From positions 131,035-163,034 of IMG/VR virus record IMGVR_UViG_3300049489_000707: DNA of 32,000 nt; one strand, written 5' to 3'. The stretch's first letter is position 1; each line of letters starts with the position of its first letter. This DNA is from a virus. Below the pieces are notes generated by a model, which was given only the letters and a program-made list of their open reading frames with translations, did not search any database and had not been told where the DNA came from. Below, one piece after another: positions 2,528 to 28,297 of the stretch. Made by a program: the position numbers and the translations under genes.

Positions 2528-3293
2528 TGAGAATCTGGTCCCTGATGCGAGTCTCGAACTCCTTGAGGGCCCAGTCGGCCGCCTCGTCCAAGAACTTCTT
2601 CGCCTCCAAGCCCGGGTGAACCCAGCGCCCCTGCCCCTTCATCTTTGATGACGCGATGCGAAAAGTCATGATGGACTTCTTCACTGACTCTTTGCCCTTG
2701 GCGTCCTTCACGTTGCTCTGGTAGACTCGTACCCCCTGAAGATGTGGGATGCCTGTCGCCCCTTGCTTGACTGCGCCGATCGGCCCGTGGCCAGACCCAG
2801 CGCCTGGTGCGGTCTTCACAGGCTGCTTCATGATGTCGAAGGAGTGCAGGAGCCCCGTCTTGGGCTTGCCATCGGCCCCCATCTCCAGCTTCCCGTAAGG
2901 AATCTTCCTCTTCTTCATCTCCGACTTGATGGTGTTGGTCAGAGTGTTCTGCGCTGGGGTTTGCTGGGTAGCGCCTTTCTTGTGTTCGAAGGGCACCACG
3001 ATGTAGCGGGAGCCGTCCTTCGCAGTCTTGGCCTTGGGGGATTTGAGGAGGCCGTCGAGCATGTCCATGTTGGGCTTGATGCCCTCCTCAATGAACATGG
3101 CGTCCTTGCCCAGCTCAATGACCCACGTGTCAGCATCGACCTGCTTGAAGCTCAGGGCGTTGATGTATTTCTCGCGGGTGCTGTGGAGCTTGGCCTGAAC
3201 CTCTTCGAGGATGTGCGCGTGGGTCTGGGCAGTCAGGTCCCTGGCCGCGTCGCTCATGGCCTTGTGGACTGACTTGTCGAAGCCCTTGACCAT
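2505..3293 (-). CDS. Hypothetical virion-associated protein (262 aa)
   Basis: ORF 2505..3389 trimmed to internal ATG (MVKGFDKSV...) because the longer start would overlap the HNH gene. No confident family assignment. Confidence 0.6.
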   Translation of the reverse strand: MVKGFDKSVHKAMSDAARDLTAQTHAHILEEVQAKLHSTREKYINALSFKQVDADTWVIELGKDAMFIEEGIKPNMDMLDGLLKSPKAKTAKDGSRYIVVPFEHKKGATQQTPAQNTLTNTIKSEMKKRKIPYGKLEMGADGKPKTGLLHSFDIMKQPVKTAPGAGSGHGPIGAVKQGATGIPHLQGVRVYQSNVKDAKGKESVKKSIMTFRIASSKMKGQGRWVHPGLEAKKFLDEAADWALKEFETRIRDQILISVVGGF

Positions 3294-3313
3294 CGCGATG
3301 ATGGGTCCCAAAT

Positions 3314-3814
3314 CTAGGTTGAAATAGATGATGACAGCCTCCGTTGAGCCGTTCTGACTCGATGGCAATTTGAGCAGACAAGCTCGCACTTCTTCAGCTC
3401 TTCCAGGAGCACTTCCATTCTGTAGCCGCGATCAACAAGTACGCAGATGCCGGCACGCTTTGTTCCTCGAACATGATCGAAGTCCATGGCCACTGCAGGG
3501 AACCTCCCGTGACAGTCGGTACAGGCCCCCGCTTTGAGTCCGTCCACAAAACGACGTTTCATGGCTTTCAACTCAGATAGGCGGGCCTTGATTAGCTCTC
3601 GCTTTTCCTTACGGTACTGAGCAGCCAACTTCAGACGCTCTTGTCGAGAACCAAGATAAGTCTTACGGCTGATCTCTTTGGATCTTTCTGGATTCTTTTG
3701 AACCCACTCATCGTGCTTTGCAGTAGAACAGGCCCGACAGTAGGAGTAGCCAGACGGCCTCGATGGCGTGGCTGGTAGGGCGGGCTCTTTCTGGCATTTT
3801 ACGCAAATCTTCAT
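3314..3814 (-). CDS. HNH endonuclease
   Basis: ORF 3314..3910 trimmed to MKICVKCQKE. N-terminal CxxC...CxxC; C-terminal FDHVRGTK...ELKKCELVCSNCHRVRT is the classic HNH/His-Me finger pattern. Confidence 0.8.
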   Translation of the reverse strand: MKICVKCQKEPALPATPSRPSGYSYCRACSTAKHDEWVQKNPERSKEISRKTYLGSRQERLKLAAQYRKEKRELIKARLSELKAMKRRFVDGLKAGACTDCHGRFPAVAMDFDHVRGTKRAGICVLVDRGYRMEVLLEELKKCELVCSNCHRVRTAQRRLSSSIST

Positions 3815-3821
3815 GCCAGTA

Positions 3822-3827
3822 AGATTA
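3822..3827 (-). promoter_or_regulatory. TAATCT -10-like hexamer 7 nt upstream of HNH ATG (leaderless geometry)
   Basis: Minus-sense TGATCTGTCTTAATCTTACTGGCATG. Shares a 16-nt identical run with the tRNA-operon promoter at 26578. Confidence 0.45.
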
Positions 3828-3834
3828 AGACAGA

Positions 3835-5238
3835 TCAGCCCCCAGGGTTGCGGCTCGAAGTCGGAGTCCCATCGGGGGCCATGACGATACCGGCCCTGAC
3901 CTGGCGCCACTTCGTCTTGCCCGTTGCTGGGTCCTGAACCTTCAGCTCGCCACCTTCGTGGGCTGCACTGGGGCCTGGGTCAACCTGGGAGCCAACTGGG
4001 AGGGTCACCTGGTGACGACCGGTCTTACCGGCTTCGAGGGCCGCCTTGTCCATCTTGCTGTAGTAGCTCGGGTCTTCGGTGAGATGGTCCTTGGCGACCT
4101 CTTTAGCTCGGGCTTCATCAAGGCCGTGCTCTTCCATCTCCACCCTCATCCCCTCAGCCAGCTGCTCGGGGTCGAAAGAAGAGTCGGAGGCGTCGTCCCC
4201 CTTGCCACCCGGCATCAAGTCCTTGCGCAGAATCTTGTTGGCCCAGTGGTCCTTGTGGTCGTGGCAATAATCTCCGGTGATGGTGCGCTGGCAACGACGC
4301 TCGCCGAGCTTCCATTTACACCGCCCCACCTTGCCCTCCGCCTTCTGGACTTCCTCTTCTTGCTGAGGCTGTCCACCATCTCCCATGGCGCTTCGAGCCA
4401 TGGCAATCATCGCCTGGACAACGCCAACCACCGACTGGTACATCTCGGGGTTGCTCTGTTTCATCTGCTCAAGCGCTGGCGCATTGGCTCGGACATTCTG
4501 GAGCACCTTCACGACCTGCTCGCGCACGCCATCGACCACACCAGAGGGCTTGCCCGCCGGTTGCTGCTGGTCCTTCTGGGCTGCTGCCAGCTGATGGAAG
4601 AGCTGCTCGAAGTCGGCCGCCGTGGGCTTGGGAGCTTCAGCTGGGGCTGGAGCATTGGCGATCTGGCTGTTGAGGGCCTCGTTCTCGCTGTGCTCGCTTC
4701 CTTCAGTCGGTGCGGCTGGGGCGGCTGGAGTGCTACGACTGGCCCCCGCGAAGCCTGCGTTGGAGCCAGCGTTCATGGCGGGCGCCGCCTTCTGCAGGCC
4801 GCTGTCGGGATTCAGGTACTCATCCTGCAGCTTCTCGCTCTCGGTCTTCTCTTTGGCCTCGGCCAGAATCTCGTCGACCTCTTCGGTGTACAGCTGGATG
4901 CGGTCGCCACCCTGGAGCTTCGCTGCCATCAGACTGCGGTCGGCTTCGGAGAGCTTGGTCCCGACACCCACGCTGCAGGTGCTACCCACGGCCCCCTCGT
5001 ACTGCTCGCGGATGCCGGGCAACTCACTGAGGTAGTCGGCCTCAATCTCAAGACGACCCTCGTCGCCACCCACCCCCACGACTTTGCCACCGTGAGACTC
5101 TGCCCAGCTGGCCCAGATACGGTTGCCTCGGTCGATAGCCTGGCCAAGCCTTGCTACTTCCTCAGGATTGTCCGCAAGACTGGCCCTGCCGACCATGCGG
5201 CCAATGTGGTCACCATCGAAAGAGACGAAGAGCTTCAT
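3835..5238 (-). CDS. Putative virion protein with N-terminal mCpol/GGDEF-like palm domain, low-complexity linker, Cys/His cluster and conserved C-terminal module (467 aa)
   Basis: ORF 3835..5478 trimmed to MKLFVSFDGDHIGR, because the divergent plus gene starts at 5291. FDGDHIG ... VGVGGDEGRL ... STCSVGVG ... AAKLQGGDRI matches the Cas10-palm/GGDEF layout. C-terminal EMEEHGLD..AKEVAKDHLTEDPSYYSKM recalls a phage virion-protein motif (from memory). Confidence 0.7.
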   Translation of the reverse strand: MKLFVSFDGDHIGRMVGRASLADNPEEVARLGQAIDRGNRIWASWAESHGGKVVGVGGDEGRLEIEADYLSELPGIREQYEGAVGSTCSVGVGTKLSEADRSLMAAKLQGGDRIQLYTEEVDEILAEAKEKTESEKLQDEYLNPDSGLQKAAPAMNAGSNAGFAGASRSTPAAPAAPTEGSEHSENEALNSQIANAPAPAEAPKPTAADFEQLFHQLAAAQKDQQQPAGKPSGVVDGVREQVVKVLQNVRANAPALEQMKQSNPEMYQSVVGVVQAMIAMARSAMGDGGQPQQEEEVQKAEGKVGRCKWKLGERRCQRTITGDYCHDHKDHWANKILRKDLMPGGKGDDASDSSFDPEQLAEGMRVEMEEHGLDEARAKEVAKDHLTEDPSYYSKMDKAALEAGKTGRHQVTLPVGSQVDPGPSAAHEGGELKVQDPATGKTKWRQVRAGIVMAPDGTPTSSRNPGG

Positions 5239-5245
5239 GGTGAGA

Positions 5246-5251
5246 AGATTA
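5246..5251 (-). promoter_or_regulatory. TAATCT -10-like hexamer 7 nt upstream of ATG 5238 (leaderless geometry)
   Basis: Minus-sense GTCAACGGTAATCTTCTCACCATG. Confidence 0.45.
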
Positions 5252-5254
5252 CCG

Positions 5255-5284
5255 TTGACAGGCGCTGTCGAGAACAGATATGGT
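5255..5284 (+). promoter_or_regulatory. Sigma70-type promoter TTGACA-18-TATGGT, 6 nt before ATG 5291
   Basis: TTGACA 5255-5260, TATGGT 5279-5284, ATG 5291. No room for a Shine-Dalgarno sequence. Confidence 0.6.
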
Positions 5285-5290
5285 TGGGAC

Positions 5291-5554
5291 ATGAAGACGG
5301 AACAACTACTTACCCTGATTGCCATCGCCAACAACGCCACCCTGGCGGACATCCTGGAGGCCTGCGATGAGGCCAAGCGCCAAGGCCCATGGACGCCGGC
5401 CTCAGGTGGCACTGAGCAGATCTTCCGGGCTCGCACCGGCAAGCGGCTCCTGTACTGCTGGCAACAGACCACGGGCAAGCATGCCTACCTCGACGTGGAC
5501 TCTGATATCATCCTCAGCGACGAAGAGGCCCGGATGCACCTGAACATGTACTGA
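5291..5554 (+). CDS. Hypothetical protein (87 aa)
   Basis: Internal ATG of ORF 5123..5554 (MKTEQLLTLIAIANN...). First gene of the plus-strand block. Confidence 0.6.
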   Translation: MKTEQLLTLIAIANNATLADILEACDEAKRQGPWTPASGGTEQIFRARTGKRLLYCWQQTTGKHAYLDVDSDIILSDEEARMHLNMY

Positions 5555-5561
5555 GGGCGTC

Positions 5562-5948
5562 ATGAGCAAGAAAAAGCCATTCATGGGGAGGGACTACCTC
5601 TTGCTCAAAATCATCGGCGGTGCTACAAAGGCTGGGGTAGAGCCCGACCGCAAGAAGGAAGCCAACAAGACCGCAGCGAGAGGAAACAAGATGAACAGAG
5701 CAGACCGACAGAAGCCGCAAGAGAACGGCATGATGGTGGCGGAGTTGAAGCACCTGCGTGCCCAGGTGAAGGCGAAGGACGAGAAAATCGCCAAGCTGAC
5801 CGAGGAGGTCCAGGAGCTTCGCGCTCAGGTGAACCTGACAGCCATGCTCGACCCCACCACCGAAGAGAACAAAGCGCTGGCGGAAGAGGCCAGGAAGTGG
5901 GCCGTGAAGTCGGGGCTAATCAGCACGACGGAAGAAGCCAAGAAGTGA
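5562..5948 (+). CDS. Hypothetical coiled-coil protein (128 aa)
   Basis: ORF track. ATG start; basic N-terminus followed by heptad-like AELKHLRAQVKAKDEKIAKLTEEVQELRAQV. Confidence 0.65.
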   Translation: MSKKKPFMGRDYLLLKIIGGATKAGVEPDRKKEANKTAARGNKMNRADRQKPQENGMMVAELKHLRAQVKAKDEKIAKLTEEVQELRAQVNLTAMLDPTTEENKALAEEARKWAVKSGLISTTEEAKK

Positions 5949-6169
5949 GCCTCCAGTTTACCCGAGCCGAGTTCGTCGAGTGCCCTACATGTAGGGCCAA
6001 GCCTGGCTCGCCGGCCCTGTGTCGCGAGTGTCTGGAACGGCGAGAGCTGCATGGGGTACTTCACAGGCTCCAGAGCTGGTTCCCGAACCAGGCCATGCAC
6101 CCCTACATCAAAATCTGCACCCACTGTAACGGAACCCCCAACCCATCTTGCCCGGAGCACGGGCGCTGA
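5945..6169 (+). CDS. Small Cys-rich (zinc-ribbon-like) protein (~74 aa)
   Basis: Frame of ORF 5897..6169. GTG at 5945 overlaps the previous stop (GTGA). CPTC...CRECL...CTHCNGTPNPSCPEH. Start is uncertain (5897 GTG is the alternative). Confidence 0.45.
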   Translation: MSLQFTRAEFVECPTCRAKPGSPALCRECLERRELHGVLHRLQSWFPNQAMHPYIKICTHCNGTPNPSCPEHGR

Positions 6170-6177
6170 GGTAGAAT
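6148..6177 (+). promoter_or_regulatory. Promoter-like TTGCCC-18-TAGAAT, 7 nt before ATG 6185
   Basis: TTGCCC 6148-6153, TAGAAT 6172-6177, ATG 6185. Lies in the 3' end of the preceding small gene. Confidence 0.45.
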
Positions 6178-6184
6178 CAAGCAC

Positions 6185-6973
6185 ATGACACCAATCATCA
6201 TCATCGGCGGCGGAGCAGGAAGCGGCAAAGACACGGTAGCGGAGATGCTCTGCCGGGGACGCAATGGGGTGATGATCGCCCAGGCCGACCCTATGAAGCA
6301 GTTCGCCCAGCAGGTGGCAGGCTTCACCACAGACCAGCTGTGGGGACCTTCCTCCAGCCGCAACGCTGAAGACCCGCGCTTCAGGCCCGGCATGGAGGGG
6401 GAAGTGAACTGGGAGCTGATGGCCGGGCAAGTGCTCTTCAGCGACCTCGCACCCAGCTGGCTGAACTTCATCGGAGCACACGACGCCTTCCCGGTACTCA
6501 AGAGCTGGTTCGACAAGCTCCGTGCCGACTTCAAGGACCGCACCCTGACCCCACGAGCGTTCCTTCAGACCCTTGGCACCGAGTTCGGTCGTACCGTCTC
6601 CCGTGACGTCTGGAGCAACCTGGCCATCAGCCAGGCCCGAGAGCTTCTCGTGGGTGGCGCCAGCTACGACCGCGAGAGAGGACTTCAGAAGTCAGACAAC
6701 CCTGGTCACAACTTCGTGGTCATCACCGATGGCCGGTTCCGCAACGAAATCCTCAATGTGACCTCGATGGGTGGCAGAGCCCTGAAAGTAGTCAACCCGG
6801 TCGACGAAGGTGCGGCGGTCGAGAGCGCCGGCATCAAGGGTCACGCCTCAGAGGCCGAGCTGAAGGGCATCCCTGACGGCTGGTACACGGATCGGCTCAT
6901 CAACGACAAGCGCCAGGGTCTTGTGGTGCTGGCGGCCAACGTGGAGGCATACGCCCGAGGCTGGGGGCTGTAA
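6185..6973 (+). CDS. Deoxynucleoside monophosphate kinase-like P-loop kinase
   Basis: P-loop IIGGGAGSGKDT and the ITDGRFRNE motif (D-x-RF-x-NE) are typical of phage dNMP kinases (from memory). Confidence 0.65.
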   Translation: MTPIIIIGGGAGSGKDTVAEMLCRGRNGVMIAQADPMKQFAQQVAGFTTDQLWGPSSSRNAEDPRFRPGMEGEVNWELMAGQVLFSDLAPSWLNFIGAHDAFPVLKSWFDKLRADFKDRTLTPRAFLQTLGTEFGRTVSRDVWSNLAISQARELLVGGASYDRERGLQKSDNPGHNFVVITDGRFRNEILNVTSMGGRALKVVNPVDEGAAVESAGIKGHASEAELKGIPDGWYTDRLINDKRQGLVVLAANVEAYARGWGL

Positions 6974-7575
6974 TGAAGAAGCTCCGCATCCTCATCGACA
7001 TCGACGGCATCGTGGCAGACACCATGCCGCACTGGCTCCAGTATCTCGGGGACCAGACGGGCGTGTACGCCAAGATGGAAGACATCACGATGTACGACCT
7101 CTCAAGGTGCCCTCCTCTGACCGAGATTGGCCCGGGGGTCGTCTTCGGAGTGCTCCAGGACGTAGGCTTCACGATGGGGATTCCCATGATGGAGGGGGCC
7201 GCCAACGTCCTCAAGAACCTCATGGACGACGGCCACGAGGTCTACCTGGTCACCGCCCGCAGTGGTGCTCAGCACATCGCCGAGACCTACGAGTGGGTCA
7301 AGGCAACGATGCCGTTCATCGACACCAGAAGGCAGCTCATCTTCTGCTACGAGAAGCATCTCATCGCGTGTGACGTCATCATCGACGACCAAGCGGCTAC
7401 GCTTCAGAAGTACAAGACCACGCACCCGAAAGCGTTGGCCTTGGGCATCAGGTACCTCTACAACGACCACCTGGATTGCTGTTCCAACCCTGTGGACGTG
7501 ACGCTGGTCGAGTACGGCGACACCGCCTGGGCCACCCTTTACCAGCAAATCATGCTGCACGCGGAAGAGCCATGA
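6973..7575 (+). CDS. 5'(3')-deoxyribonucleotidase (HAD superfamily, NT5C-like)
   Basis: ILIDIDGIVAD (DxDG nucleophile motif), LVTAR, VIIDDQ. TAATG overlap with the upstream gene. Confidence 0.7.
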   Translation: MKKLRILIDIDGIVADTMPHWLQYLGDQTGVYAKMEDITMYDLSRCPPLTEIGPGVVFGVLQDVGFTMGIPMMEGAANVLKNLMDDGHEVYLVTARSGAQHIAETYEWVKATMPFIDTRRQLIFCYEKHLIACDVIIDDQAATLQKYKTTHPKALALGIRYLYNDHLDCCSNPVDVTLVEYGDTAWATLYQQIMLHAEEP

Positions 7576-8138
7576 CCTGCATCGTCGGCCTCGTGGTGGG
7601 CGACCGTGTCGTCATCGGCGGAGACTCCGCCGCTGGCACCCATGGCTGGGGTATTCAGGCACGGGTCGACTCCAAGGTCGGCAACGTCGGTGAGTTCGTG
7701 TTCGGCTTCACCGACAGCTTCCGCATGGGCCAGGTACTTCTCTACCGCTTCACCCCACCGCCGATTGAAGGCGAACTGATGGCCTACATGGTGGGGCCGT
7801 TCATCGACGAGCTGCGTCGCACCTTCCGAACTGCCGGCTACGCTGAGCGTCAAAACGAGCGCGAGTCTGGGGGCACCTTCCTGGTGGGCGTTCGAGGCCG
7901 ACTCTTTCGCATCTCCAGCGACTACCAGGTGGGCGAGTCGAAGGACAGCTATGATGCCGTGGGCTGTGGAGCTGACATCGCCCTGGGTAGCATGTACTCC
8001 TCAGGCCTCGCCATCGAGCAAGCCCCGAAGGCTCGTATCCTGGAGGCGTTGTCGGCCGCTGAGCACTTCAGCGGTGGCGTACGTAGGCCATTCAACATCG
8101 TTGTGACCCCGCTTGCTTCTCTCCCCGACCCACTGTAA
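7572..8138 (+). CDS. Ntn-hydrolase, HslV/proteasome-beta-like peptidase
   Basis: Internal ATG of ORF 7476..8138 (ATGA overlap). MTCIVGLVVGDRVVIGGDS...FVFGFTDSF...AVGCGADIALG aligns by eye with HslV TTIV...VVIAGDGQ...AGFAGG...AIGSGG. Confidence 0.6.
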   Translation: MTCIVGLVVGDRVVIGGDSAAGTHGWGIQARVDSKVGNVGEFVFGFTDSFRMGQVLLYRFTPPPIEGELMAYMVGPFIDELRRTFRTAGYAERQNERESGGTFLVGVRGRLFRISSDYQVGESKDSYDAVGCGADIALGSMYSSGLAIEQAPKARILEALSAAEHFSGGVRRPFNIVVTPLASLPDPL

Positions 8139-8148
8139 GGTACAAGAC

Positions 8149-8373
8149 ATGCCAGACAACACTCCAGAAGACCCGGTGCAGCTCACACAAGAAGAGACCG
8201 AGGAGGTGGCCATGGCCCTGGGCCATATTCTCATTGCCACCACAGCAGAGTACTGTCATCAGATGGGACTGTCGATGGCCGACCCCAACACGCAACAGCT
8301 CGTTCGTGTAGTCCTGATGGGACTGCTCAAGACGTTGCCGGGTAGTGAACAAGCTCCTGAAGCAAAGGCCTGA
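8149..8373 (+). CDS. Hypothetical acidic protein (74 aa)
   Basis: Internal ATG of ORF 8113..8373 (MPDNTPEDPVQLTQEE...). Confidence 0.55.
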   Translation: MPDNTPEDPVQLTQEETEEVAMALGHILIATTAEYCHQMGLSMADPNTQQLVRVVLMGLLKTLPGSEQAPEAKA

Positions 8374-8375
8374 CC

Positions 8376-8735
8376 ATGCCGTACATGATCCGCAATGGCC
8401 AAGGCCTCTTCAGTACAGGCGGCGGTCATCCCAGCTTCCGAGAAGATGGCAAGATGTGGAAGACCCTCGGCCAGGTCAAGTCGCACCTCGCCATGTTCCG
8501 TACATACCAGGGCGTCAACCAGGTCCCCGCTGACTGGGAGGTCGTCGAGGTTCAACTGAAGCTGTTGAGCGGCGAGAACGCCCGTGCGCTGGTCCAACCT
8601 CTGGCCGACAAACAGGCTGAGCGCCAGGCTCAGTACAAGAACCGATTCGAGAAAGAGCGGGCTGACCGGGAGAAGGCGGAATTCAAGCGTCTGCAGAAAA
8701 AGTACGACCCAGCTCACGCACCGGGGCACGAATGA
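8376..8735 (+). CDS. Hypothetical protein (119 aa)
   Basis: ORF track. ATG 3 nt after the previous stop. Confidence 0.6.
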   Translation: MPYMIRNGQGLFSTGGGHPSFREDGKMWKTLGQVKSHLAMFRTYQGVNQVPADWEVVEVQLKLLSGENARALVQPLADKQAERQAQYKNRFEKERADREKAEFKRLQKKYDPAHAPGHE

Positions 8736-8989
8736 ACGAGAATCCGTGGAACACGCCGAACTTTCCCAAGAATTTCAGTCAAGACGAGCTGAACGACAAG
8801 CGTCGTGCTTCCATCAACTGGCTGCGCGAGAACTACTCGCACATCTGGCGACACCCGAGGCTGAGTGCCCACCGGAAGGCCGGTTTCCTGGCTGCGTGCT
8901 GCGACAGCCGTCGGTGCTACCTGGCCACTCTCGACCTGCCTGAGCGGGTTGAACACATCTACGTTGCACTGGTTCAAGAGGGTTTGTAA
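8732..8989 (+). CDS. Hypothetical protein (85 aa)
   Basis: ORF track. ATGA overlap with the upstream gene. Confidence 0.6.
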   Translation: MNENPWNTPNFPKNFSQDELNDKRRASINWLRENYSHIWRHPRLSAHRKAGFLAACCDSRRCYLATLDLPERVEHIYVALVQEGL

Positions 8990-8997
8990 TGGTGCCC

Positions 8998-9073
8998 GCC
9001 TCCGTAGCTCCAATGGCCAGAGCGTCCAGAGTAATGACCTGGAAGGTTGTGGGTTCAAATCCCACCGGGGGCA
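8998..9073 (+). tRNA. tRNA with apparent 9-nt anticodon loop (AGTAATGAC); isotype undetermined
   Basis: Hand fold: acceptor GCCTCCG/CGGGGGC (one G-U pair), U8, D arm GCTC-CAATGGCCA-GAGC, anticodon stem TCCAG/CTGGA enclosing 9 nt, variable AGGTT, T arm GTGGG-TTCAAAT-CCCAC, discriminator A. No CCA encoded. Confidence 0.7.
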
Positions 9074-10984: not shown

Positions 10985-11902
10985 TTACCCTGGCTTCAGG
11001 TTGTCCTGGTGGAGGTAGTCTTCGTGGTACTGATTCAGCTTCGGGTTCCACCACTTGACCTCGTAGTAGTGTCCCGGGCCGTCGATGTCGTTGTCTTGGT
11101 ACTGGGCCGACGTCACCTTGCCCTTCCAAGGGACGGCCTGCTGGTCGACGTGGGTCACGGTCTGGCCCGGCTTGTACAGCTGGCCGCCGGCCTTCAGCTT
11201 CGCCTTCTTGGCCTCGGTCTCACGCTGTCGAGCCAGCTCGTGAAAGCCTGGGTCGCTCATCATGGCGTGATGGGCGTCTGCGAGAATGCCCTCCACCTTG
11301 GTGCGAGCCAGCTGCTTGCGAGCCTCGATTTTGGGGACGATCGACGACACGCCGTCTGCTACCTGGGGGCCTGCAGCTGCAGTCTCTTTGACGGCCGCGT
11401 CCCACCCTGCCGGGACCTTGGCTGGGGTTGCAGCTGGGGCAGGTTTAGCCGCCGGCTTCTTGAAAGGAAGCACCTTGCCGTCTGCCTTAGCCAGCTCGCC
11501 CTTCTTCTCTTCCTTGGCCGGCTTGTCCTGGAGCAGGAACGCATCGCCTCGATGCGGCTTGAAGCGGTAGAAGTTCTCCTGCTTATCGGCCAGGCCCTGA
11601 ATCTCGTGGGGAACCGGCCCCATGGGGTCAAGGCCCAACTCCTTCATGTGCAGCTGGTACATCATGCCGTGCTTGTGGCCTTCCTCGTGGCTGCCTGCCG
11701 CCTGAGCTGCCTTGAGCCCCTGCATGTGGTACGCTGCTGCCTCACGGTGCTTGTCCTGCTTGTACTCGTGGTGAGCGCGGTGCTCGGCGTCTGGCCGGGC
11801 CATGCGGTGCTTGAACTCGTAGACTGCCGCCCTGGATTCCAGGTCGTGCTTGTCTTCGTCCTTGGCAATCTTCCGACCGTTCCAGCTTGGTGCGTTATCC
11901 AT
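10985..11902 (-). CDS. Hypothetical His/Lys-rich protein (305 aa)
   Basis: ORF track. ATG start, 8-nt overlap with the upstream gene. The antisense ORF 10979..11914 is rejected. Confidence 0.65.
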   Translation of the reverse strand: MDNAPSWNGRKIAKDEDKHDLESRAAVYEFKHRMARPDAEHRAHHEYKQDKHREAAAYHMQGLKAAQAAGSHEEGHKHGMMYQLHMKELGLDPMGPVPHEIQGLADKQENFYRFKPHRGDAFLLQDKPAKEEKKGELAKADGKVLPFKKPAAKPAPAATPAKVPAGWDAAVKETAAAGPQVADGVSSIVPKIEARKQLARTKVEGILADAHHAMMSDPGFHELARQRETEAKKAKLKAGGQLYKPGQTVTHVDQQAVPWKGKVTSAQYQDNDIDGPGHYYEVKWWNPKLNQYHEDYLHQDNLKPG

Positions 11903-13196
11903 TGCGGCTCCTGAACGTCTTCATCAGTGCCTTGACCGTCTCAGCGTCGATGTTGGAGCTGAAGTCCAGCACGTAGCCGTCACCGTAGGCTGTGGTCTTG
12001 ATGCTCTTGGCGAGGTCGCGGAAGCAGATGCAACCCTTGAATTTGTTGTTCTCGAACTGGTGGCCTTCGCAGATTTCACAGGGCCGCTCGGCTTCGGACT
12101 TGCCGACAGCGAGGCCTGGTTGCTTGGGAGCCTTGGGGAGCTTGGGCTTCGGCGCTGCGCCTTGAGTGGCCTGGCCCATGGTCGGCTGCTTCTGCGGAGG
12201 CATGGCGCCTTGAGGGCCTTGCTGCGCGGTAGGCTTGTGGCTGCTGCCTGGTAGCTCGACCTTGCCGAACTGAGGATTCTTCGCGTTGCCGGCCCAGAGC
12301 GCTTCGCCCTCGTCCGTTTGTAGCTTTGATGGATGCACTGTTTTTCCTGTAACTTTCTGGGCGTGGGCATACATCGCCGACGCAACACCTCGACGCTGAT
12401 GAGCTTCATCAACGCCAACGGTGCCAGCAACCAGGGCGTTGCCATGGTGCTTGAAAGTGGCGACACCAACTGGGTCGCCGATGTGGTCTGGGTGAAATGC
12501 CCGGACGGTAGTCATTGAGCCGTTGTGCTCATGATGAAAGGTGTAGCCGGCGTTCGGGTCCAAGACCTTCTTACCCAAGCCAGGCTTGAACTCACCCTTG
12601 TACTTCTTCTGATGCCAGTTGGCGATCTCGCCCGCGTCTTTCAGATTGCCGATGCCGCGCTGGACGGTCGACTTGGAGAGGGTGTGAACTACCAGGTAGG
12701 GGCGCTCTGATGAGCTGTCACGCTCTACGTGGTAGTGACCGTGCTGGGTGATAGTCTGGGGACTGAGCACCTTGGGTGACTTCAGTTCCTGCATCAGCAC
12801 CTGGGCCTTGGCCAGGGTGTCGATGCTCTTGCCGAGCTTCACCAGTACAGTGTCACGGACATCGGCGTCAAGAGTACCGGTCTCTACGCCCAGGGCCATG
12901 GCGATGCTGGCAGCGAGGTGGTAAATGCTGGCTTGCTCGAAGCTGTAAACGCCTTCGTTGAGGGTGATACTGCCACTGAAGCCACTGTCCGACTTCTGAA
13001 ACTGGACGTAGCTGTTCTCGATGCCTGGGATTGGCCCCTCGTACTCGTGGGCAGCGGTGAATGAGAGCCAGCCTACAATGGCGCGGGGGATGAGGATTTG
13101 ATCCAGCTGAGGCTCACGCTCAGCAGCCTTCCGCAGGGCTTGTGCCCCGTCGGTACCCAGCGCTGCTGCCATGAATTTCCTGCCCAAGTCGGACAT
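11895..13196 (-). CDS. Hypothetical protein with GNAT-like segment and C-terminal Cys cluster (433 aa)
   Basis: ORF 11895..13208 (TTG) trimmed to ATG MSDLGRK with GGAGAC upstream. VGVDEAHQRRGVASAMYAHAQ resembles GNAT motif A. CEICEGHQFENNKFKGCIC. Confidence 0.65.
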   Translation of the reverse strand: MSDLGRKFMAAALGTDGAQALRKAAEREPQLDQILIPRAIVGWLSFTAAHEYEGPIPGIENSYVQFQKSDSGFSGSITLNEGVYSFEQASIYHLAASIAMALGVETGTLDADVRDTVLVKLGKSIDTLAKAQVLMQELKSPKVLSPQTITQHGHYHVERDSSSERPYLVVHTLSKSTVQRGIGNLKDAGEIANWHQKKYKGEFKPGLGKKVLDPNAGYTFHHEHNGSMTTVRAFHPDHIGDPVGVATFKHHGNALVAGTVGVDEAHQRRGVASAMYAHAQKVTGKTVHPSKLQTDEGEALWAGNAKNPQFGKVELPGSSHKPTAQQGPQGAMPPQKQPTMGQATQGAAPKPKLPKAPKQPGLAVGKSEAERPCEICEGHQFENNKFKGCICFRDLAKSIKTTAYGDGYVLDFSSNIDAETVKALMKTFRSRNG

Positions 13197-13213
13197 CGTC
13201 GTCTCCAAGGCTA

Positions 13214-13219
13214 AGATTA
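13214..13219 (-). promoter_or_regulatory. AATCTT-family motif (TAATCT) overlapping a TAA stop, 17 nt upstream of ATG 13196
   Basis: Minus-sense GGCCGAGGTAATCTTAGCCTTGGAGACGACGATG. Confidence 0.35.
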
Positions 13220-14083
13220 CCTCGGCCCAAAGCCACCATCTTCGGGCTCAGGGGTTTGTCGGGGGCTCTCGGGGCCCGAGTCTTTGTTCTTGGGGTCTCG
13301 TCGTGCTTGGTCGTCGTGGCTCTCGTTGAGGAACAGGAACTCTCGGTTGAGAAGAGCCTGCTGAGGCATGCGAACGAGGGTTCGGTCGTCGTTGATGGGC
13401 GACTCCACCTGGGCCACGCGAATCTCGTGCAGGAGCCGGGCGCAGTACCAGAAGGGCCGGTAGCGGTAGCGAATGCTGATGACAGCGCCCCGGCCCGTCT
13501 CCAGGTCGTCGATGGGGCGTTTGCCGTTGGGCAACCAGTTCACTTGCCCATTCTTGAGGCAGAAGTCTTGTCCTTCCTTGTAGGAATCACCACGAGAGTC
13601 CACCAGATTTTCAACGGTCACAGCGGGGAATGCCAGGCGCTCGGTCCCGCTCTCGTTGCATCGGCTCAGCTGCCACGTGGGCACTGTGATAGACTCTTCG
13701 TTGAGGTAGAAGCGGTCGAACGGGGCAAGGTAAAAGTCTTTACCTTCCTCGTATTGGCGCGGGAAGCTGGCTGTAAAGCTCGCACCGTCCACAAAGCCAA
13801 CATCCCGCAAATCCTGCTTGTTTTGGTTCCCGACGAGCAGTGACTTGATGCAGCCGGCCTTGCTGTAGAGGTAGCCGTTGCTGCAGCCGGCGTGGTCTTC
13901 ATGAGGCCTGCGGTTGTCGTCCAGGTCGGTCATCCCTACTGGACAGCGAAGGGCCACGTAGTGGACCAGCTGAACGCCGTGGCTACGAATGGCCTGGTCA
14001 AAAGCCTCAGCGTCAAAGCTGACCTGGACCTCACGATGGTCGATGTTCAACGTCTCAACTGGGCTGCGGCCGTTCCTTGCCAT
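13217..14083 (-). CDS. Hypothetical (probably structural) protein (288 aa)
   Basis: ORF track. ATG start, globular composition, no family recognised. Confidence 0.65.
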   Translation of the reverse strand: MARNGRSPVETLNIDHREVQVSFDAEAFDQAIRSHGVQLVHYVALRCPVGMTDLDDNRRPHEDHAGCSNGYLYSKAGCIKSLLVGNQNKQDLRDVGFVDGASFTASFPRQYEEGKDFYLAPFDRFYLNEESITVPTWQLSRCNESGTERLAFPAVTVENLVDSRGDSYKEGQDFCLKNGQVNWLPNGKRPIDDLETGRGAVISIRYRYRPFWYCARLLHEIRVAQVESPINDDRTLVRMPQQALLNREFLFLNESHDDQARRDPKNKDSGPESPRQTPEPEDGGFGPR

Positions 14084-14085
14084 GG

Positions 14086-14409
14086 TTACTTCACCGGCTC
14101 GGCCGTCTCACAGATGGCTCGGAGTGCATCGGTGAGGTTCTCGTACTTGGGGAGCACCAACTCGAAGGCCTCGATGTCGACATGGTCGGACTTGCTCAGC
14201 TCAGACCAGACGATTTCCGGCTCATGCTTCTGAGCGATATGACGCGCCACAGCACGGTGGGGGCCAGTACCTAGGGTCTCGTAGCCAGTGCCGCCGGGGG
14301 TGACCAGGATGTGGAGGCCGCCCTTCGTGCGCAGGTGATAGACGGGCTTGCCGTGTAGGTTGCCCACCTTCTTGGGTTTTTCGTCGATTTGTTTCGCGCT
14401 AAGGTCCAT
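14086..14409 (-). CDS. Hypothetical protein (107 aa)
   Basis: ORF 14086..14427 (TTG) trimmed to ATG MDLSAKQ with AAGGAG upstream. Confidence 0.6.
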   Translation of the reverse strand: MDLSAKQIDEKPKKVGNLHGKPVYHLRTKGGLHILVTPGGTGYETLGTGPHRAVARHIAQKHEPEIVWSELSKSDHVDIEAFELVLPKYENLTDALRAICETAEPVK

Positions 14410-14432
14410 TTGAGACTCCTTCTTCAAAAAGA

Positions 14433-14438
14433 AGATTG
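14433..14438 (-). promoter_or_regulatory. AATCTT-family motif (CAATCT variant), 23 nt upstream of ATG 14409
   Basis: Minus-sense GGCCGGCAATCTTCTTTTTGAAGAAGGAGTCTCAAATG. Confidence 0.4.
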
Positions 14439-14444
14439 CCGGCC

Positions 14445-14473
14445 TTGACGGGCGTTTTGGGGCCTGATAGGGT
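14445..14473 (+). promoter_or_regulatory. Sigma70-type promoter TTGACG-17-TAGGGT, 7 nt before ATG 14481
   Basis: TTGACG 14445-14450, TAGGGT 14468-14473, ATG 14481. Confidence 0.55.
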
Positions 14474-14480
14474 GCGTCTC

Positions 14481-14720
14481 ATGAAAACGAACCTCGGCAC
14501 CAAGGTCTACTACACCGGCGACATGGCCAACAGCAGCGGCAACTTCGAGGTGGTAGACTTCGCAGGAAGCTACGTCACCCTTCGAGAGATTGACGGAGAG
14601 GGCCGGCGGTTCCAGGGGATTCACACCCACCAGATCGGCGACGTCTACCAGGGCCACTGCAACCCCCGCTTCGTCACCGAAGAGGCCCGTCAGGCCTTCC
14701 GGAAGGCGAGGGGCCTGTGA
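14481..14720 (+). CDS. Hypothetical protein (79 aa)
   Basis: Internal ATG of ORF 14436..14720 (MKTNLGTKVYYTGD...). Confidence 0.6.
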   Translation: MKTNLGTKVYYTGDMANSSGNFEVVDFAGSYVTLREIDGEGRRFQGIHTHQIGDVYQGHCNPRFVTEEARQAFRKARGL

Positions 14721-14941
14721 AGCTGGACTCTACGCTGACCCCCAAGGAACTCAGGCTGGTCAGGGCCGACCTGAAGGCCAGGGGTCTGAAGCTCCCCAAG
14801 AGCGGCTGGACGATTCAGCTCAGCAACGGTACCCGGGTCTGTAGGGACCAGCACGGCTACTACTTGACTGGACCATTTCCAGGTGTTACATCACCGTTGG
14901 CCAAAGGCCACGTTTACATCACAGAAAGGCAGCACACATGA
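14717..14941 (+). CDS. Hypothetical protein (74 aa)
   Basis: ORF track. GTG start in a GTGA overlap with the previous stop. Confidence 0.5.
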   Translation: MKLDSTLTPKELRLVRADLKARGLKLPKSGWTIQLSNGTRVCRDQHGYYLTGPFPGVTSPLAKGHVYITERQHT

Positions 14942-15459
14942 GCGAAGCACAGATAGACACGTTTGTAGTCCTGACTGAATCCGGCGACCTTCAGGAGAGA
15001 AACGAGAGGGTTCTGGAGGCCGTCAAGAGGATGCCACAGCAGCAAGGCACCTACCAGCAGGTCATCGACTTCATCGCTGGAACGAATGACGTCCCCATCG
15101 CCGACGGGAACGCCATCTCGGCACCCATCATCAGCGCTCTTTCGGAGCTGTACTACGAGGGCTGGCTCAATGGCGAAATCAAGGTCCCAAATCCGAGAGC
15201 GCGGAAGACCTACACAAAGAAGGGGAAGCTTCGCAAGCCGAAAGCCAACACCTTGTACCGCTGGCTCGGTTACAAGGGCCCGGAGGTCCCCAAGGACGAG
15301 TCGTGGAAGGAGTACGCCGAACGCCTGGAAGAGGAGCTGAAGCTTGCCAAAGAAGAAGCCAAGCTCATGGAAGAGCTTGCGACCGAAGCAGGCCGGCGCT
15401 ACGCCGAGGCGATGGAGACAATCCAAAAGCTTACGGCGTCGCCAGCCAAAGCTGGTTGA
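14938..15459 (+). CDS. Hypothetical protein (173 aa)
   Basis: ORF track. ATGA overlap. Basic middle segment and coiled-coil C-terminus. 29-nt convergent overlap with the giant gene. Confidence 0.6.
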   Translation: MSEAQIDTFVVLTESGDLQERNERVLEAVKRMPQQQGTYQQVIDFIAGTNDVPIADGNAISAPIISALSELYYEGWLNGEIKVPNPRARKTYTKKGKLRKPKANTLYRWLGYKGPEVPKDESWKEYAERLEEELKLAKEEAKLMEELATEAGRRYAEAMETIQKLTASPAKAG

Positions 15460-26577: not shown

Positions 26578-26606
26578 AGATTAAGACAGACCGAAACGAA
26601 TGTCAA
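26578..26606 (-). promoter_or_regulatory. Consensus sigma70-type promoter TTGACA-17-TAATCT driving the tRNA array
   Basis: Minus-sense TTGACA (26606-26601; contains the HNH TGA stop), a 17-nt spacer, then TAATCT (26583-26578). About 110-nt leader before tRNA-Tyr. Confidence 0.7.
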
Positions 26607-27070
26607 GCCCACCCATGACAGCGACGCCTGGTGATGATTCCATTCACGTGAGAGCGACTGACCCCAAAGCGCACTGCCAGCTGGGCCTGGGTAATACCAC
26701 CAGCGGCATAGGCGCGACGCATCTCGGTGACCTGATCTCCGTTCAGTTTCTTAGGCACAAAGACCTTGGAGCCGCGAGCAAAGGCCCTCTTCATGTTTTC
26801 AGAATGAGTCACCAGCTCCAGGTGGGCCAGAGCGATGCAGTTCGGCCGGCTACAGGTGTGGTCCAGCTCCATGCCGGCTGGGACCACACGGCCAGCAAGC
26901 TCCCACACGACCACGTGGGCCATTCTCAACTTGCCCTTTACCTTGACTTGAGCGTACTTGGAACTGCAAGGCTTCTTGGCCAGAAGGATACAGCCGGTCA
27001 GCGGGTCTACCTCCGACTGAAGCCTGAGTCGATCTTCAAGTGGGATGTCACGGCGGCCTTGTAGTTTCAT
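26603..27070 (-). CDS. HNH (HNH_3-type) homing-like endonuclease with C-terminal HTH-like tail
   Basis: MAHVVVWELAGRVVPAGMELDHTCSRPNCIALAHLELVTHSENMKR (DH.C....C.N..HLE..T..EN pattern). C-terminal ITQAQLAVRFGVSRSHVNGI. Confidence 0.8.
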   Translation of the reverse strand: MKLQGRRDIPLEDRLRLQSEVDPLTGCILLAKKPCSSKYAQVKVKGKLRMAHVVVWELAGRVVPAGMELDHTCSRPNCIALAHLELVTHSENMKRAFARGSKVFVPKKLNGDQVTEMRRAYAAGGITQAQLAVRFGVSRSHVNGIITRRRCHGWA

Positions 27071-27498
27071 GTTGCCTCGGGGATAGAGTCAGGTGGCTTC
27101 TTCACGCAGATACCGAAGACGTTGCCACCCAGCTCTTCAGGGGTGATGACGCGCACGCCATTCTCCTCGATGTTGCTCTTGCTCTTCCAGGAGTCGAAGG
27201 CAATGAGGCTGTCGCCGAGGCAGCCAATGATGGCTACCCAGTGAAGCTCTTCGTCGAGGTGGATGATGACGGGGGTGCCGGCCAGCACACGCTTGCGTAC
27301 GGTCGAAGTGCGCCACACGGCAGTCGGAGAGCAGCCCAGCTTGCGCAGGGCCCGCATCAGCTGCCGCTCGTCTGTACCTTCGGGGGTGGTGCCGGCCAGC
27401 TTGGCTACGTGCGCCTCCGGCACCTGCAGCCCGTACAGACGCAGGGCGTTGACCGCCGCTGCTGGACCACAGGTGTAGGAGCGCGTCTGGTACTTCAT
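27067..27498 (-). CDS. Papain-fold cysteine peptidase, C39-like
   Basis: QTRSYTCGPAAAVNALRLYG (Gln + Cys nucleophile helix), LHWVAIIG (His), IAFDSW (Asp). ATGA overlaps on both sides. Confidence 0.6.
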   Translation of the reverse strand: MKYQTRSYTCGPAAAVNALRLYGLQVPEAHVAKLAGTTPEGTDERQLMRALRKLGCSPTAVWRTSTVRKRVLAGTPVIIHLDEELHWVAIIGCLGDSLIAFDSWKSKSNIEENGVRVITPEELGGNVFGICVKKPPDSIPEAT

Positions 27499-27698
27499 CC
27501 CAGGTCTTCGTTCCTGGTCTCGTACTCTTCAACGAAAGAGACCAAGACATCGCGAATCTGTGCCTCGGGGGTGCCATCGGCTGAATCCCACAACTCTTCG
27601 ATTCTCTCGATGGCGAGTTCGTACTCCTCCTCGGTCTCAATGCGATTGTAGGCCTGAGGGTCACGCTTCAGCTTCGTCTGCGAGTGCGTCGAGGGCAT
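27495..27698 (-). CDS. Small protein resembling the N-terminal helical hairpin of HigA/XRE-type antitoxins, without an HTH domain (67 aa)
   Basis: IETEEEYELAIERIEELWDSADGTPEAQIRDVLVSFVEEYE matches the ..EY..AL..I..L.D...GTPE......L..LIE.YE pattern (from memory). The protein ends right after it. Confidence 0.45.
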   Translation of the reverse strand: MPSTHSQTKLKRDPQAYNRIETEEEYELAIERIEELWDSADGTPEAQIRDVLVSFVEEYETRNEDLG

Positions 27699-28279: not shown

Positions 28280-28297
28280 GGGCCGCTCCTCCTCAGA

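Follow-up and report, generated by a model that had tools for sequence, protein, structure and literature searches.

A predicted mCpol domain with intact catalytic residues in a modular protein of a relative of Myxococcus phage Mx1

The window analyzed here, a 32,000-nucleotide stretch of an IMG/VR virus record, comes from a phage related to Myxococcus phage Mx1 (~170 kb) and contains a minus-strand ORF, running from position 5238 to position 3835, that the ORF list and the sequence identified as a real gene. The complete gene (3835..5238, minus strand) encodes 467 aa plus a stop codon, and its product comprises, in order, an mCpol domain, a linker, a helical core, a Cys/His cluster, a DUF5661 segment and a C-terminal tail. 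Homologues of the ORF numbered 131 at E<=0.001, and the AlphaFold2 model of all 467 aa had a mean pLDDT of 76. The plus strand also has a long ORF here (3958..5370), which was rejected as a gene in favor of the minus-strand ORF with its 131 homologues. The start given by JGI lies 18 codons upstream of the ATG at 5238 and yields a 485-aa product (P0001). We preferred the ATG at 5238 because homologues such as P0002 and P0003 begin at an MK.. that aligns with it and because the match to the Pfam model PF18182 begins at aa 4 of the 467-aa protein. The peptide that an initial annotation of this DNA had quoted as a nucleotide cyclase domain is the N-terminus of this ORF, read from the ATG at 5238, and the interval it had assigned, 4864-5238, corresponds to aa 1-125.

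The neighbors of the gene are an HNH endonuclease gene (3314-3814), the gene for a soluble phrog_16819 protein and small soluble ORFs, and nearby lies a divergent block with genes for a deoxynucleotide monophosphate kinase (DNMK) and a 5'-nucleotidase (NT5C). The endolysin, virion-protein and HNH genes of the window are further signs of a phage origin. A co-directional run of genes in neck and tail positions begins with this gene and, in the related locus L003 and in Mx1, extends to a ~950-aa ORF that occupies the place of the Mx1 tail sheath gene; the annotation "tail sheath" for this ORF exists in Mx1 only. In Mx1, the family member has its place between the gene for the major capsid protein and that for the tail sheath. 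According to Pfam, the protein contains neither a MuF nor a portal domain, and its gene does not adjoin the portal gene. Fusion to a MuF or portal domain is the usual head anchor of polyvalent phage proteins. No 2TM, S-2TMbeta, CARF or SAVED effector was found beside the gene, nor beside its counterparts in the related loci L002 and L003 and in Mx1. A Panoptes-like operon, in which an mCpol gene has a nucleotide-gated membrane effector gene nearby, was rejected because there is no such effector gene in the vicinity.

Six nucleotides before the ATG is a motif, GGTAATCTT (5245..5253, minus strand), that was recognized by its enrichment and conservation. The window has 10 matches to it versus 1.24 expected, 7 of the 11 motifs on the minus strand are located 4-29 nt before ORF starts, and in 13 of 16 related loci it stands upstream of the gene's homologue. 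In the form YAATCTT the motif is common to the gene, the Mx1 portal gene and other genes of the Mx1 morphogenesis block. It also precedes a thioredoxin gene and an HNH gene and is therefore not a strict marker of structural genes. We consider the motif a candidate phage-specific promoter or start-proximal signal. A search upstream of the gene on its own strand found no sigma-70-like promoter; the divergent block has one.

The first ~125 aa of the protein (4864..5238, minus strand) were assigned to the mCpol (minimal CRISPR polymerase) palm domain of the Cas10-palm/GGDEF superfamily, an assignment on which the sequence profile, the solved structures and the predicted fold all agree. The Pfam mCpol model, PF18182, matched with 36.8 bits in the full protein and 40.6 bits in the domain alone (cut-off 26.4; E=4e-10 to 6e-9), over model positions 1-113 of 114. 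When a profile of the family was compared with the PDB, the mCpol chains 9NWN and 9MNR were matched at E about 3e-10 (9NWN, 2.8e-10). The AlphaFold2 model had pLDDT values of 92-98 across aa 1-130, and its top six Foldseek matches were to 9pd0, 9mnr and 9nwn (TM 0.72-0.85, rmsd 1.7-3.0 Å; the best of them TM 0.80-0.85, rmsd 1.7-2.8 Å), with the Panoptes OptS structures 9mnr and 9pd0 at TM 0.84 and rmsd 1.7-2.0 Å; GGDEF and Cas10 structures were the runners-up. The mCpol/GGDEF-like domain called in the initial annotation thus held up in both profile and Foldseek comparisons, which led to solved mCpol structures. A stricter mCpol model, NCBIfam NF033576, gave 28.7-33 bits, under its curated cut-off of 40. 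Judged by sequence, the phage clade is a divergent mCpol subfamily.

The mCpol domain was reportedly first defined by Burroughs et al. in 2015. The one role characterized for it so far, in papers of 2025-2026, is that of synthase in the Panoptes guard systems of bacteria, which agrees with the earlier remark that mCpol domains are mostly described in cellular conflict systems. The solved examples, OptS of K. pneumoniae (9MNR, 9PD0) and mCpol of E. coli ECOR31 (9NWN), have the same fold (TM 0.80-0.85 over ~119 residues), and the phage domain equals them in length and, like them, has no sensor domain. The SxGxG and K..GGD elements are likewise shared, at a sequence identity of about 20%. The differences are that OptS/mCpol is a stand-alone protein of ~120 aa whereas the phage domain is the N-terminal part of a 467-aa protein, that the phage hairpin is a canonical GGDE where OptS has AADG, that the base-contacting residues S30 and N34 correspond to G32 and D36, and that Panoptes has an adjacent effector gene of a kind (2TM, CARF or SAVED) not present beside the phage gene. 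The palm of Cas10 (Csm1/Cmr2) from type III CRISPR systems has a homologous fold and a GGDD-type hairpin, and was recovered as a weak Pfam Cas10-Cmr2_palm2 match and as Foldseek matches to 6o75 and 3w2w. Unlike Cas10, the phage protein has a single minimal palm, with no HD domain, second palm, RNA-guided complex or regulatory loop L1. The GGDEF model (PF00990) did not match the protein at E<=10, and the motif is GGDEG rather than GG[DE][DE]F. GGDEF structures in the PDB matched the model at TM about 0.5, and mCpol lacks the N-terminal elements of GGDEF.

All of the motifs named in the initial annotation are present: D8-G9-D10 (5209..5217, minus strand), G57-G58-D59-E60-G61, S89-x-G91-x-G93 and A106-K107..G110-G111-D112-R-I. 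In the phmmer alignment to 9NWN and 9MNR, D8 aligns with Asp6 of OptS/mCpol, and D59, in the G57-G58-D59-E60 beta-hairpin motif (5059..5070, minus strand), aligns with Asp57; both aspartates are catalytic in OptS/mCpol (PMC12657218). Among 110 aligned sequences (the query and 109 homologues), D10 was conserved in 95% and D8 in 67%, and D8, D59 and E60 were all kept in 180 of 230 homologues (78%). The GGDE hairpin is highly conserved within the clade of the query, and close relatives have 91-94% identity in the mCpol domain compared with 77-85% in the adjacent linker and core. Based on these intact residues, the domain is probably catalytically active. About 22% of relatives, the Mx1 protein among them, no longer have the complete set of catalytic acidic residues; the Mx1 protein has S8, and LGAVG replaces GGDEG in it. 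A role conserved throughout the family therefore cannot be catalysis alone.

The A/P/Q-rich linker, the Cys/His cluster and the E-H...DHLTEDPSYY module that had been noted in the remainder of the protein were all located. The linker (aa 126-232; 4543..4863, minus strand) is mostly predicted to be disordered, with AlphaFold2 pLDDT below 50 at aa 150-182, 201-205 and 225-232. Within it is a short linear motif, E-G-S-E-H-S-E-N-E (aa 179-187; 4678..4704, minus strand), that stands out by family conservation: 96 of the 234 family members that are full-length contain E.SEH[ST], whose median position is residue 181, and it was retained in P0110 and P0113, in which the mCpol domain is absent. We speculate that this motif could be a processing or docking site. 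The helical core (aa 233-285; 4384..4542, minus strand), which reads ...QVVKVLQ..APALEQMKQSNPEMY..VQAMIAMAR, has predicted helices over aa 234-284 at pLDDT 85-93 and is conserved in the family consensus, with P264 invariant. Profile searches with the core gave weak, non-significant matches to four-helix FAT domains (E about 0.04). A PHROG match to "portal protein" (phrog_1289, E=0.0015) was judged unreliable, as it covers the low-complexity middle of the protein.

The Cys/His cluster, CKWKLGERRCQRTITGDYCHDHKDH (aa 307-331; 4246..4320, minus strand), lies in what proved to be a variable slot of the family. It is limited to the closer relatives and may be a small zinc-binding element, with short beta strands predicted at 304-306 and 319-321 and block means of pLDDT of 61-69 for aa 301-330 that drop to 50 for aa 331-340. 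Also in the slot is the E-H...DHLTEDPSYY module (aa 355-393; 4060..4176, minus strand), a predicted helical hairpin at pLDDT 93-97 that matched DUF5661 (PF18905) over aa 358-398 at a borderline 27.4 bits against a cut-off of 27; the same model reached up to 49 bits in the relative P0110, where DUF5661 adjoins an ART-PolyVal domain. A homologue search with this segment alone collected one candidate. In Vibrio phage VPs20, DUF5661 is found inside a DUF2213 protein encoded between the terminase and capsid genes; in Caulobacter phage Cr30 it is a free 70-aa ORF away from the structural genes. The earlier suggestion that this module is of a virion type is supported in that it is a DUF5661, known from head-module and polyvalent contexts; the Cr30 copy lies outside such a context, and the structural search with the C-terminal 272 aa gave the suggestion no confirmation.

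The C-terminal tail (aa 398-467; 3838..4047, minus strand), KAALEAGKTGRH..LPVGSQ..KVQDPATGKTKWRQVRAG..PTSSRNPGG, is a family-specific small beta-rich element with strands predicted by AlphaFold2 at aa 431-435 and 442-446. It terminates 204 of 234 family members, and among 50,697 phage records it occurred once in Mx1 and in no other phage. Foldseek of the C-terminal 272 aa against the PDB gave no significant match; the best had E=2.7, and the hints of an SH3-like fold were faint. A search of the window for a paralogue of the tail, helical core, DUF5661 or mCpol segments, as a possible shared packaging signal, found none.

The protein belongs to a family of 819 clusters at 50% identity, whose members range from 300 to 1300 aa. 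Sequence comparison indicates that the constants of the family are the N-terminal mCpol domain, the helical core and the unique C-terminal tail, with the variable slot between them. PF18182 matched 55 of 56 long relatives. The cargo of these 56 members included GNAT (12), ART-PolyVal (4), DUF5661 (4), ParB_N (2) and NUDIX (1) domains; P0110 has ART-PolyVal and no mCpol domain. The family gene was found in 14 IMG/VR loci, several of them on contigs of about 168-182 kb. Megablast of window positions 3000-9000 against the 50,697 phage records gave no match. When the GTDB genomes were scanned with the alignment of the family, none of the 67 pattern matches was confirmed; representative genomes therefore give no sign of cellular or prophage copies. 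Across 79% of its length the query is 33% identical to WNM70340.1 of Mx1, which is annotated as "hypothetical protein" and was tabulated without discussion as "mCpol+?" by Sullivan et al. 2025 (Supplementary Table 3; PMC12657218). The two share an architecture of mCpol-like N-terminus, helical core and C-terminal tail, and both come from phages of one kind, ~170 kb in size and related in synteny. They differ in that the catalytic residues, DUF5661 and the Cys/His cluster of the query are all missing from the Mx1 protein.

This variable-slot architecture, as read from sequence, resembles that of phage "polyvalent" effector proteins, in that several unrelated domains from the polyvalent repertoire are found in one phage-encoded polypeptide: the hallmarks ART-PolyVal, ParB_N and NUDIX, plus GNAT, are all present in the family. 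Iyer et al. 2017 (PMC5512222) reported GGDEF and RelA/SpoT domains in delivered polyvalent proteins and proposed that such domains interfere with host nucleotide signaling; mCpol is mentioned zero times there. The query carries few domains for a polyvalent protein and has, instead of a MuF/portal anchor, the family-specific helical core and C-terminal tail.

We tentatively favor, at somewhat short of an even chance, the reading that the gene encodes a modular effector of Mx1-like phages in which an active mCpol domain interferes with host nucleotide signals and which is plausibly packaged. In its favor are the identity of the domain, the intact catalytic residues, the polyvalent-like modularity, the phage origin, the link of the gene to the morphogenesis block, and the cyclic-nucleotide defenses of the presumed hosts: M. 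xanthus has CBASS and type III-B CRISPR, and Myxococcota have Panoptes operons. Weighing against it are the relatives with degraded active sites, the low NCBIfam score, the C-terminal region's lack of resemblance to any solved virion protein, the missing MuF or portal fusion, the occurrence of the upstream motif before non-structural genes and the weakness of the PHROG portal match. By analogy with OptS/mCpol, we infer that the palm (aa 1-125) would form a homodimer without a sensor domain and would constitutively convert NTPs to a cyclic di- or oligonucleotide, while the long disordered linker would connect it to the helical core, the swappable cargo slot and the C-terminal tail. The most likely role of the protein would then be to jam nucleotide-second-messenger signaling in the host, whether that signaling serves immunity (CBASS, type III CRISPR or Panoptes-like systems) or physiology. 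Co-expression of the gene with the morphogenesis genes is probable, and virions may package its product and deliver it along with the DNA, in the manner of other polyvalent phage proteins. A decoy or interference function, as suggested in the initial annotation, is plausible. If the enzyme is active, phages themselves would make immune-type cyclic nucleotides, and the protein would be a candidate means of silencing "inhibitory-signal" defenses such as Panoptes or of jamming CBASS/type III signaling.

A narrower form of this reading, which we regard as doubtful, is that the phage mCpol acts as an anti-Panoptes factor, constitutively supplying the "all is well" cyclic nucleotide that the Panoptes synthases of the host also make. 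The phage-made nucleotide would hold nucleotide-inhibited S-2TMbeta or CARF-TM effectors off while phage sponges or phosphodiesterases drain the CBASS and type III CRISPR signals, and delivery from the particle would give immediate protection. Myxococcota, the phylum hosting the one cultured relative, carry both Panoptes types, and the CBASS and type III-B CRISPR systems of M. xanthus, located in one island, stop Mx4 and not Mx1. Such a factor would be the "anti-anti-anti-defence" that, according to Sullivan et al. 2025 (PMC12657218), is still to be found.

Another explanation, unlikely in our assessment, is that the protein is morphogenetic or structural, for instance a scaffold, a head-internal or a neck-associated protein, with the mCpol fold serving as a dimer or tetramer module and the cyclase being vestigial or incidental. 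Consistent with such a role are the fixed position of the gene in or beside the morphogenesis block, its single copy in Mx1 with no paralogue in the window, the retention of domain and tail in the members that have lost catalytic residues, and the occurrence of DUF5661 at the scaffold/protease position in VPs20. OptS forms stable dimers and tetramers (PMC12657218), and the composition of the phage protein is scaffold-like, being helical and A/Q/E-rich with a strongly conserved extreme C-terminus. However, the full acidic triad in 78% of homologues and the high conservation of the GGDE hairpin in the query's clade are unexpected for a purely architectural module, the enzymes of the variable slot (ART, GNAT, ParB, NUDIX) are typical of host-directed effectors rather than of assembly, and Foldseek of the C-terminal 272 aa detected no likeness to known scaffold, portal or neck proteins.

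It is similarly improbable that the protein is a non-packaged intracellular enzyme whose c-di-GMP-like or c-di-AMP-like signals reprogram host physiology, and not immunity, during infection, with motility, exopolysaccharide, cell envelope or development as targets. Phage GGDEF cyclases exist, in Bacillus phage SP-15 (A0A127AWB9) and in uncultured phages in BFVD, and Mx1 has, in addition to its family gene, a separate intact GGDEF gene (WNM70324.1) between the protease and capsid genes. These virus-encoded diguanylate cyclases are of the same palm superfamily, but the structural match of the query to a phage GGDEF cyclase was TM 0.44 versus 0.84 for mCpol. Relatives of the Mx1 GGDEF gene, which might complement dead mCpol copies, were not found in IMG/VR, and no GGDEF homologue was detected in the window or in the related loci that were fetched. 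In 84% of the family members with intact residues, D or E occupies the position aligned to mCpol N34, a residue that contacts adenine, which hints at a different base preference; by comparison with the guanine contacts of GGDEF enzymes, this preference may be for guanine. Against a role in physiology, the mCpol enzymes characterized so far serve immunity, the companion cargo of the family consists of conflict-type domains, and no signal receptor or effector is evident near the gene.

We consider it very unlikely that the palm is a nucleotide-binding pseudoenzyme or sponge that binds rather than makes NTPs or cyclic oligonucleotides and so titrates host signals. The persistence of the SxGxG and GGD elements in clades without the catalytic Asp residues would fit such a function, but the query retains all of its catalytic residues and no precedent for a palm-domain sponge was found in the literature consulted. 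That the gene is a phage-borne defense or exclusion module, guarding against competing phages in the manner of Panoptes, whose synthase is an mCpol, is hardly credible given that no effector of the types named above is adjacent, that the PADLOC match was marginal and at the domain level (E=0.0044), and that the mCpol is embedded by fusion in a large phage-specific scaffold whose gene has a fixed position in lytic-type ~170-kb genomes.

Returning to the favored reading of a modular signaling effector, an mCpol with an intact active site is here part of an effector-type protein carried by a large and diverse group of ~170-kb phages. The occurrence of catalytically intact and dead versions on one scaffold, together with a swappable cargo slot, constitutes a natural experiment, and the conserved C-terminal tail may be a previously unrecognized anchoring module for phage effector proteins.

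The mCpol gene lies on the minus strand of the window, running from an ATG at 5238 to a stop codon at 3835-3837, and encodes a protein of 467 residues. The motifs quoted for this protein in the initial annotation were all found in their described places. The plus strand also has a long open frame here (3958..5370), which was set aside as an artefact of the 60% G+C content; the minus-strand product had 131 homologues at E<=0.001, together with significant family matches.

Codons 1-125 (4864-5238, minus strand) specify the N-terminal domain, which was initially called a Cas10-palm or mCpol (minimal CRISPR polymerase) type. Pfam model PF18182 (mCpol) matched the whole protein with 36.8 bits and the domain alone with 40.6 bits (curated cut-off, 26.4 bits), over model positions 1-113 of 114. 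The sole further palm match in Pfam was a weak one to Cas10-Cmr2_palm2, and Pfam GGDEF did not match the protein. A profile of 84 family members picked up both mCpol sequences of known structure, 9NWN and 9MNR, with E=3e-10 and the domain covered end to end; the query sequence alone reached them at E=0.002-0.004. An AlphaFold2 model built from the family alignment had pLDDT values of 92-98 across residues 1-130, and its best six Foldseek matches in the PDB were chains of OptS/mCpol, the synthase of bacterial Panoptes systems (TM 0.72-0.85, rmsd 1.7-3.0 A), with GGDEF domains and Cas10 ranked below. The initial call was thereby upheld, with no sign of an unrelated fold, and based on the agreement of Pfam, the family profile and the predicted structure we assign residues 1-125 as an mCpol domain. 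The stricter NCBIfam mCpol model gave 28.7-33 bits, under its cut-off of 40, and PADLOC a marginal domain-level match only; because of these scores the phage clade is classed, by sequence, as a divergent mCpol subfamily.

The one cultured phage matched by the full protein was Myxococcus phage Mx1 (169.6 kb, contractile tail), whose homologue WNM70340.1, annotated as 'hypothetical protein', had 33% identity across 79% of the query. Homologues came almost exclusively from metagenomes, recurrently on contigs of ~167-173 kb; 14 loci in IMG/VR carried one, and none was found in the GTDB representative genomes. Phage genes in the window included a GH108 endolysin, PHROG virion and tail-fibre families and two HNH endonucleases, alongside ThyX, deoxynucleotide monophosphate kinase (DNMK), 5'-nucleotidase (NT5C) and an HslV-like peptidase. 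The related loci span 44%-66% G+C, which makes it probable that these phages have hosts in more than one lineage.

A HMMER scan of the 130-residue domain against 1.84 billion representative proteins identified 819 clusters at E<=0.001 (662 at E<=1e-10); the domain nearly always occupies residues 1-130, in proteins of 300-1300 residues. The extreme C-terminal tail, ...GK(I/V)KV.H.DG...W..VRAGQV.S.DGH..SSRNPGGK, ended 204 of 234 full-length members, and a helical core (residues 233-285 of the query, pLDDT 85-93) was also conserved across the family. Between core and tail is a variable slot, which in the query holds a Cys/His cluster (residues 307-331) and DUF5661 (residues 355-393; 27.4 bits, Pfam cut-off 27), and which in 56 long relatives contained GNAT (12), ART-PolyVal (4), DUF5661 (4), ParB_N (2) or NUDIX (1) domains. 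Two relatives without the mCpol domain, P0110 and P0113, kept the core and tail, the former with ART-PolyVal as its cargo. A linear motif, E-(G/A)-S-E-H-S-E, is located in the predicted disordered linker (residues 179-187; 4678-4704, minus strand); its E-(G/A)-S-E-H-S portion was conserved in 96 of 234 members and retained in the mCpol-less relatives, and we speculate that it is a processing site, such as for a maturation protease, or a docking site. Constant ends with swappable, conflict-type enzymatic cargo are likewise a feature of the polyvalent proteins of Iyer et al. 2017 (PMC5512222), who inferred that these enter with the DNA, reported rare GGDEF and RelA/SpoT domains among them, suggested that nucleotide signalling in the host is thereby disturbed, and did not mention mCpol.

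In OptS of K. pneumoniae the catalytic residues are Asp6 and Asp57 (PMC12657218), to which D8 and D59 (in the G57-G58-D59-E60 hairpin) of the query corresponded in the HMMER alignment. The adenine selectivity of the ECOR31 mCpol is due to S30 and N34 (PMC12657230), whereas the query has G32 and D36 at the matching positions. Where family members have the active site intact, position 32 was mostly S and position 36 was D or E in 84%, and an acidic residue at this base-contacting position may indicate a substrate other than ATP. D8, D59 and E60 were all kept in 180 of 230 aligned relatives, and the active site was strictly conserved in the query's clade, where close relatives also had the mCpol domain conserved above the neighbouring linker and core region. 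The remaining 50 had lost at least one of the three residues, with losses clustered in more distant clades; in the Mx1 copy position 8 is S, and LGAVG stands where the query has GGDEG. Because of these losses, the alignment argues that the family-wide role cannot be catalysis alone. A structural or oligomerisation role for the protein would accommodate dead copies, and we consider it unlikely as the explanation for this family, in whose query clade the catalytic residues persist. Mx1 also encodes a 243-residue protein, WNM70324.1 (17173-17904 of the Mx1 genome), with an intact NGGDEF and a Pfam GGDEF match of 38 bits, from a gene between those for the prohead protease and major capsid protein. 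It may functionally replace the dead mCpol copy; a pattern scan of IMG/VR found no relatives of it.

The mCpol gene is divergent from a plus-strand block with DNMK, NT5C and a sigma-70-like promoter, and opens a run of closely spaced genes with the same orientation. An inserted HNH endonuclease gene (3814→3314, minus strand; phrog_2255, E=7e-23) separates it from its conserved neighbour, encoding a phrog_16819 protein (3293→2505, minus strand), after which small ORFs follow. At the equivalent site neither Mx1 nor the related locus L002 gave an HNH match in PHROG or Pfam, and two others, L003 and L004, had an 80-residue ORF there. The HNH protein probably acts as a free-standing homing endonuclease. 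A second, HNH_3, gene is at 26603-27070. Gene order in these three loci was as in the window run, which in L003 reached a ~950-residue ORF at the position of the tail sheath of Mx1, the only genome with that annotation. The Mx1 order is large terminase, portal, a 1239-residue 'prohead protease', GGDEF 'nucleotide cyclase', major capsid protein, ThyX, DNMK, a 1479-residue NUDIX protein, kinase, the mCpol protein, four hypothetical genes and tail sheath.

Six nucleotides ahead of the mCpol ATG is GG(C/T)AATCTT (5245-5253, minus strand). The pattern VRYAATCTT had 10 matches in the window against 1.24 expected, the nine others being at 2203, 10343, 11864, 13213, 14432, 21197, 25358, 28297 and 30850. 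Seven of 11 minus-strand motif copies were 4-29 nt 5' of ORF starts (two of them TTG), compared to none of five plus-strand copies, and 13 of 16 loci had the motif ahead of the homologous gene. The genes that it precedes in Mx1 are the portal gene and several more of the same block. Taken together, these placements suggest that the mCpol gene is co-regulated with morphogenesis genes. It is not a strict structural-gene marker, as thioredoxin and HNH genes carry it too, and it may be a phage-specific promoter yielding near-leaderless mRNAs. One copy is 4 nt before the TTG start of a 437-residue protein (11895-13208, minus strand) with a weak GNAT domain, GNAT also being the commonest slot cargo of the mCpol family. 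In the unusually large Mx1 'putative prohead protease' (13002-16721), YAATCTT falls 8 nt inside the annotated start; translation may therefore begin a few codons further on.

The polyvalent-like cargo, late-block position and shared upstream motif favor the mCpol protein possibly being sited in the particle. The C-terminal module had initially been likened to head or virion-associated proteins, a view that stood in part: DUF5661 occurs inside a DUF2213 protein of Vibrio phage VPs20, between terminase and capsid genes, and Caulobacter phage Cr30 has it as a small ORF of its own, but the C-terminal 272 residues (pLDDT 75) had no solved-structure match (best E=2.7). The protein had no MuF or portal domain and only a weak PHROG 'portal' match. 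A paralogue of the tail, as expected of a common packaging signal, was absent from both the window and Mx1.

In the likeliest mechanism, the N-terminal domain would be a catalytically active cyclase with no sensor, making a cyclic di- or oligonucleotide inside the infected cell. The phage-specific scaffold and tail would tether it and set its location, which may be the particle, and it would serve to interfere with host nucleotide signaling. Such defences are of real relevance to Mx1, the sole cultured relative: a CBASS and type III-B island of M. xanthus stops Mx4 and not Mx1, for which the authors suggested extra countermeasures (PMC11506125), and both Panoptes types are present in Myxococcota (Supplementary Table 3, PMC12657218). 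Manipulation of the host for a non-immune purpose is a doubtful alternative. An anti-Panoptes role, with the phage enzyme providing the decoy nucleotide that keeps Panoptes effectors inhibited, seems to us improbable; Sullivan et al. explicitly anticipated phage 'anti-anti-anti-defence' (PMC12657218). A nucleotide-binding pseudoenzyme is very improbable, and a phage-borne guard system scarcely credible as there is no effector gene nearby.

MCpol, phage GGDEF genes and polyvalent proteins are already known. As the initial annotation held, mCpol is mostly described from cellular conflict systems, and the main texts consulted discuss cellular contexts only; in Sullivan et al. 2025 (PMC12657218), Supplementary Table 3 lists the Mx1 homologue without comment as 'mCpol+?', its only viral entry. 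The sources consulted did not describe how large the phage family is, its architecture of constant ends and variable cargo, the active site being intact in most members and dead in Mx1, or the link to morphogenesis genes.

Several other window genes were of interest. A giant protein of 1488 residues (15431-19897, minus strand) combines NUDIX at its N-terminus (78 bits) with a PI3/PI4-kinase-like domain at its C-terminus (38 bits), and seems to be another polyvalent-type protein of the block that holds the mCpol gene; its Mx1 counterpart is the 1479-residue 'NUDIX hydrolase' followed by 'kinase', and its L002 homologue (1789 residues) had faint GNAT matches. The plus-strand block with DNMK and NT5C also encodes the HslV-family (proteasome-like) peptidase (7572-8138; phrog_1040, E=1e-17). 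Lastly, a possible module for RNA repair or anti-defence is clustered on the minus strand (27067-29702): it comprises a Peptidase_C39-like protein (27067-27498), a HAD_SAK_2 domain (28571-29134, 87 bits), which belongs to the 'Swiss Army Knife' RNA-repair proteins, and a calcineurin-like phosphoesterase (29115-29702).
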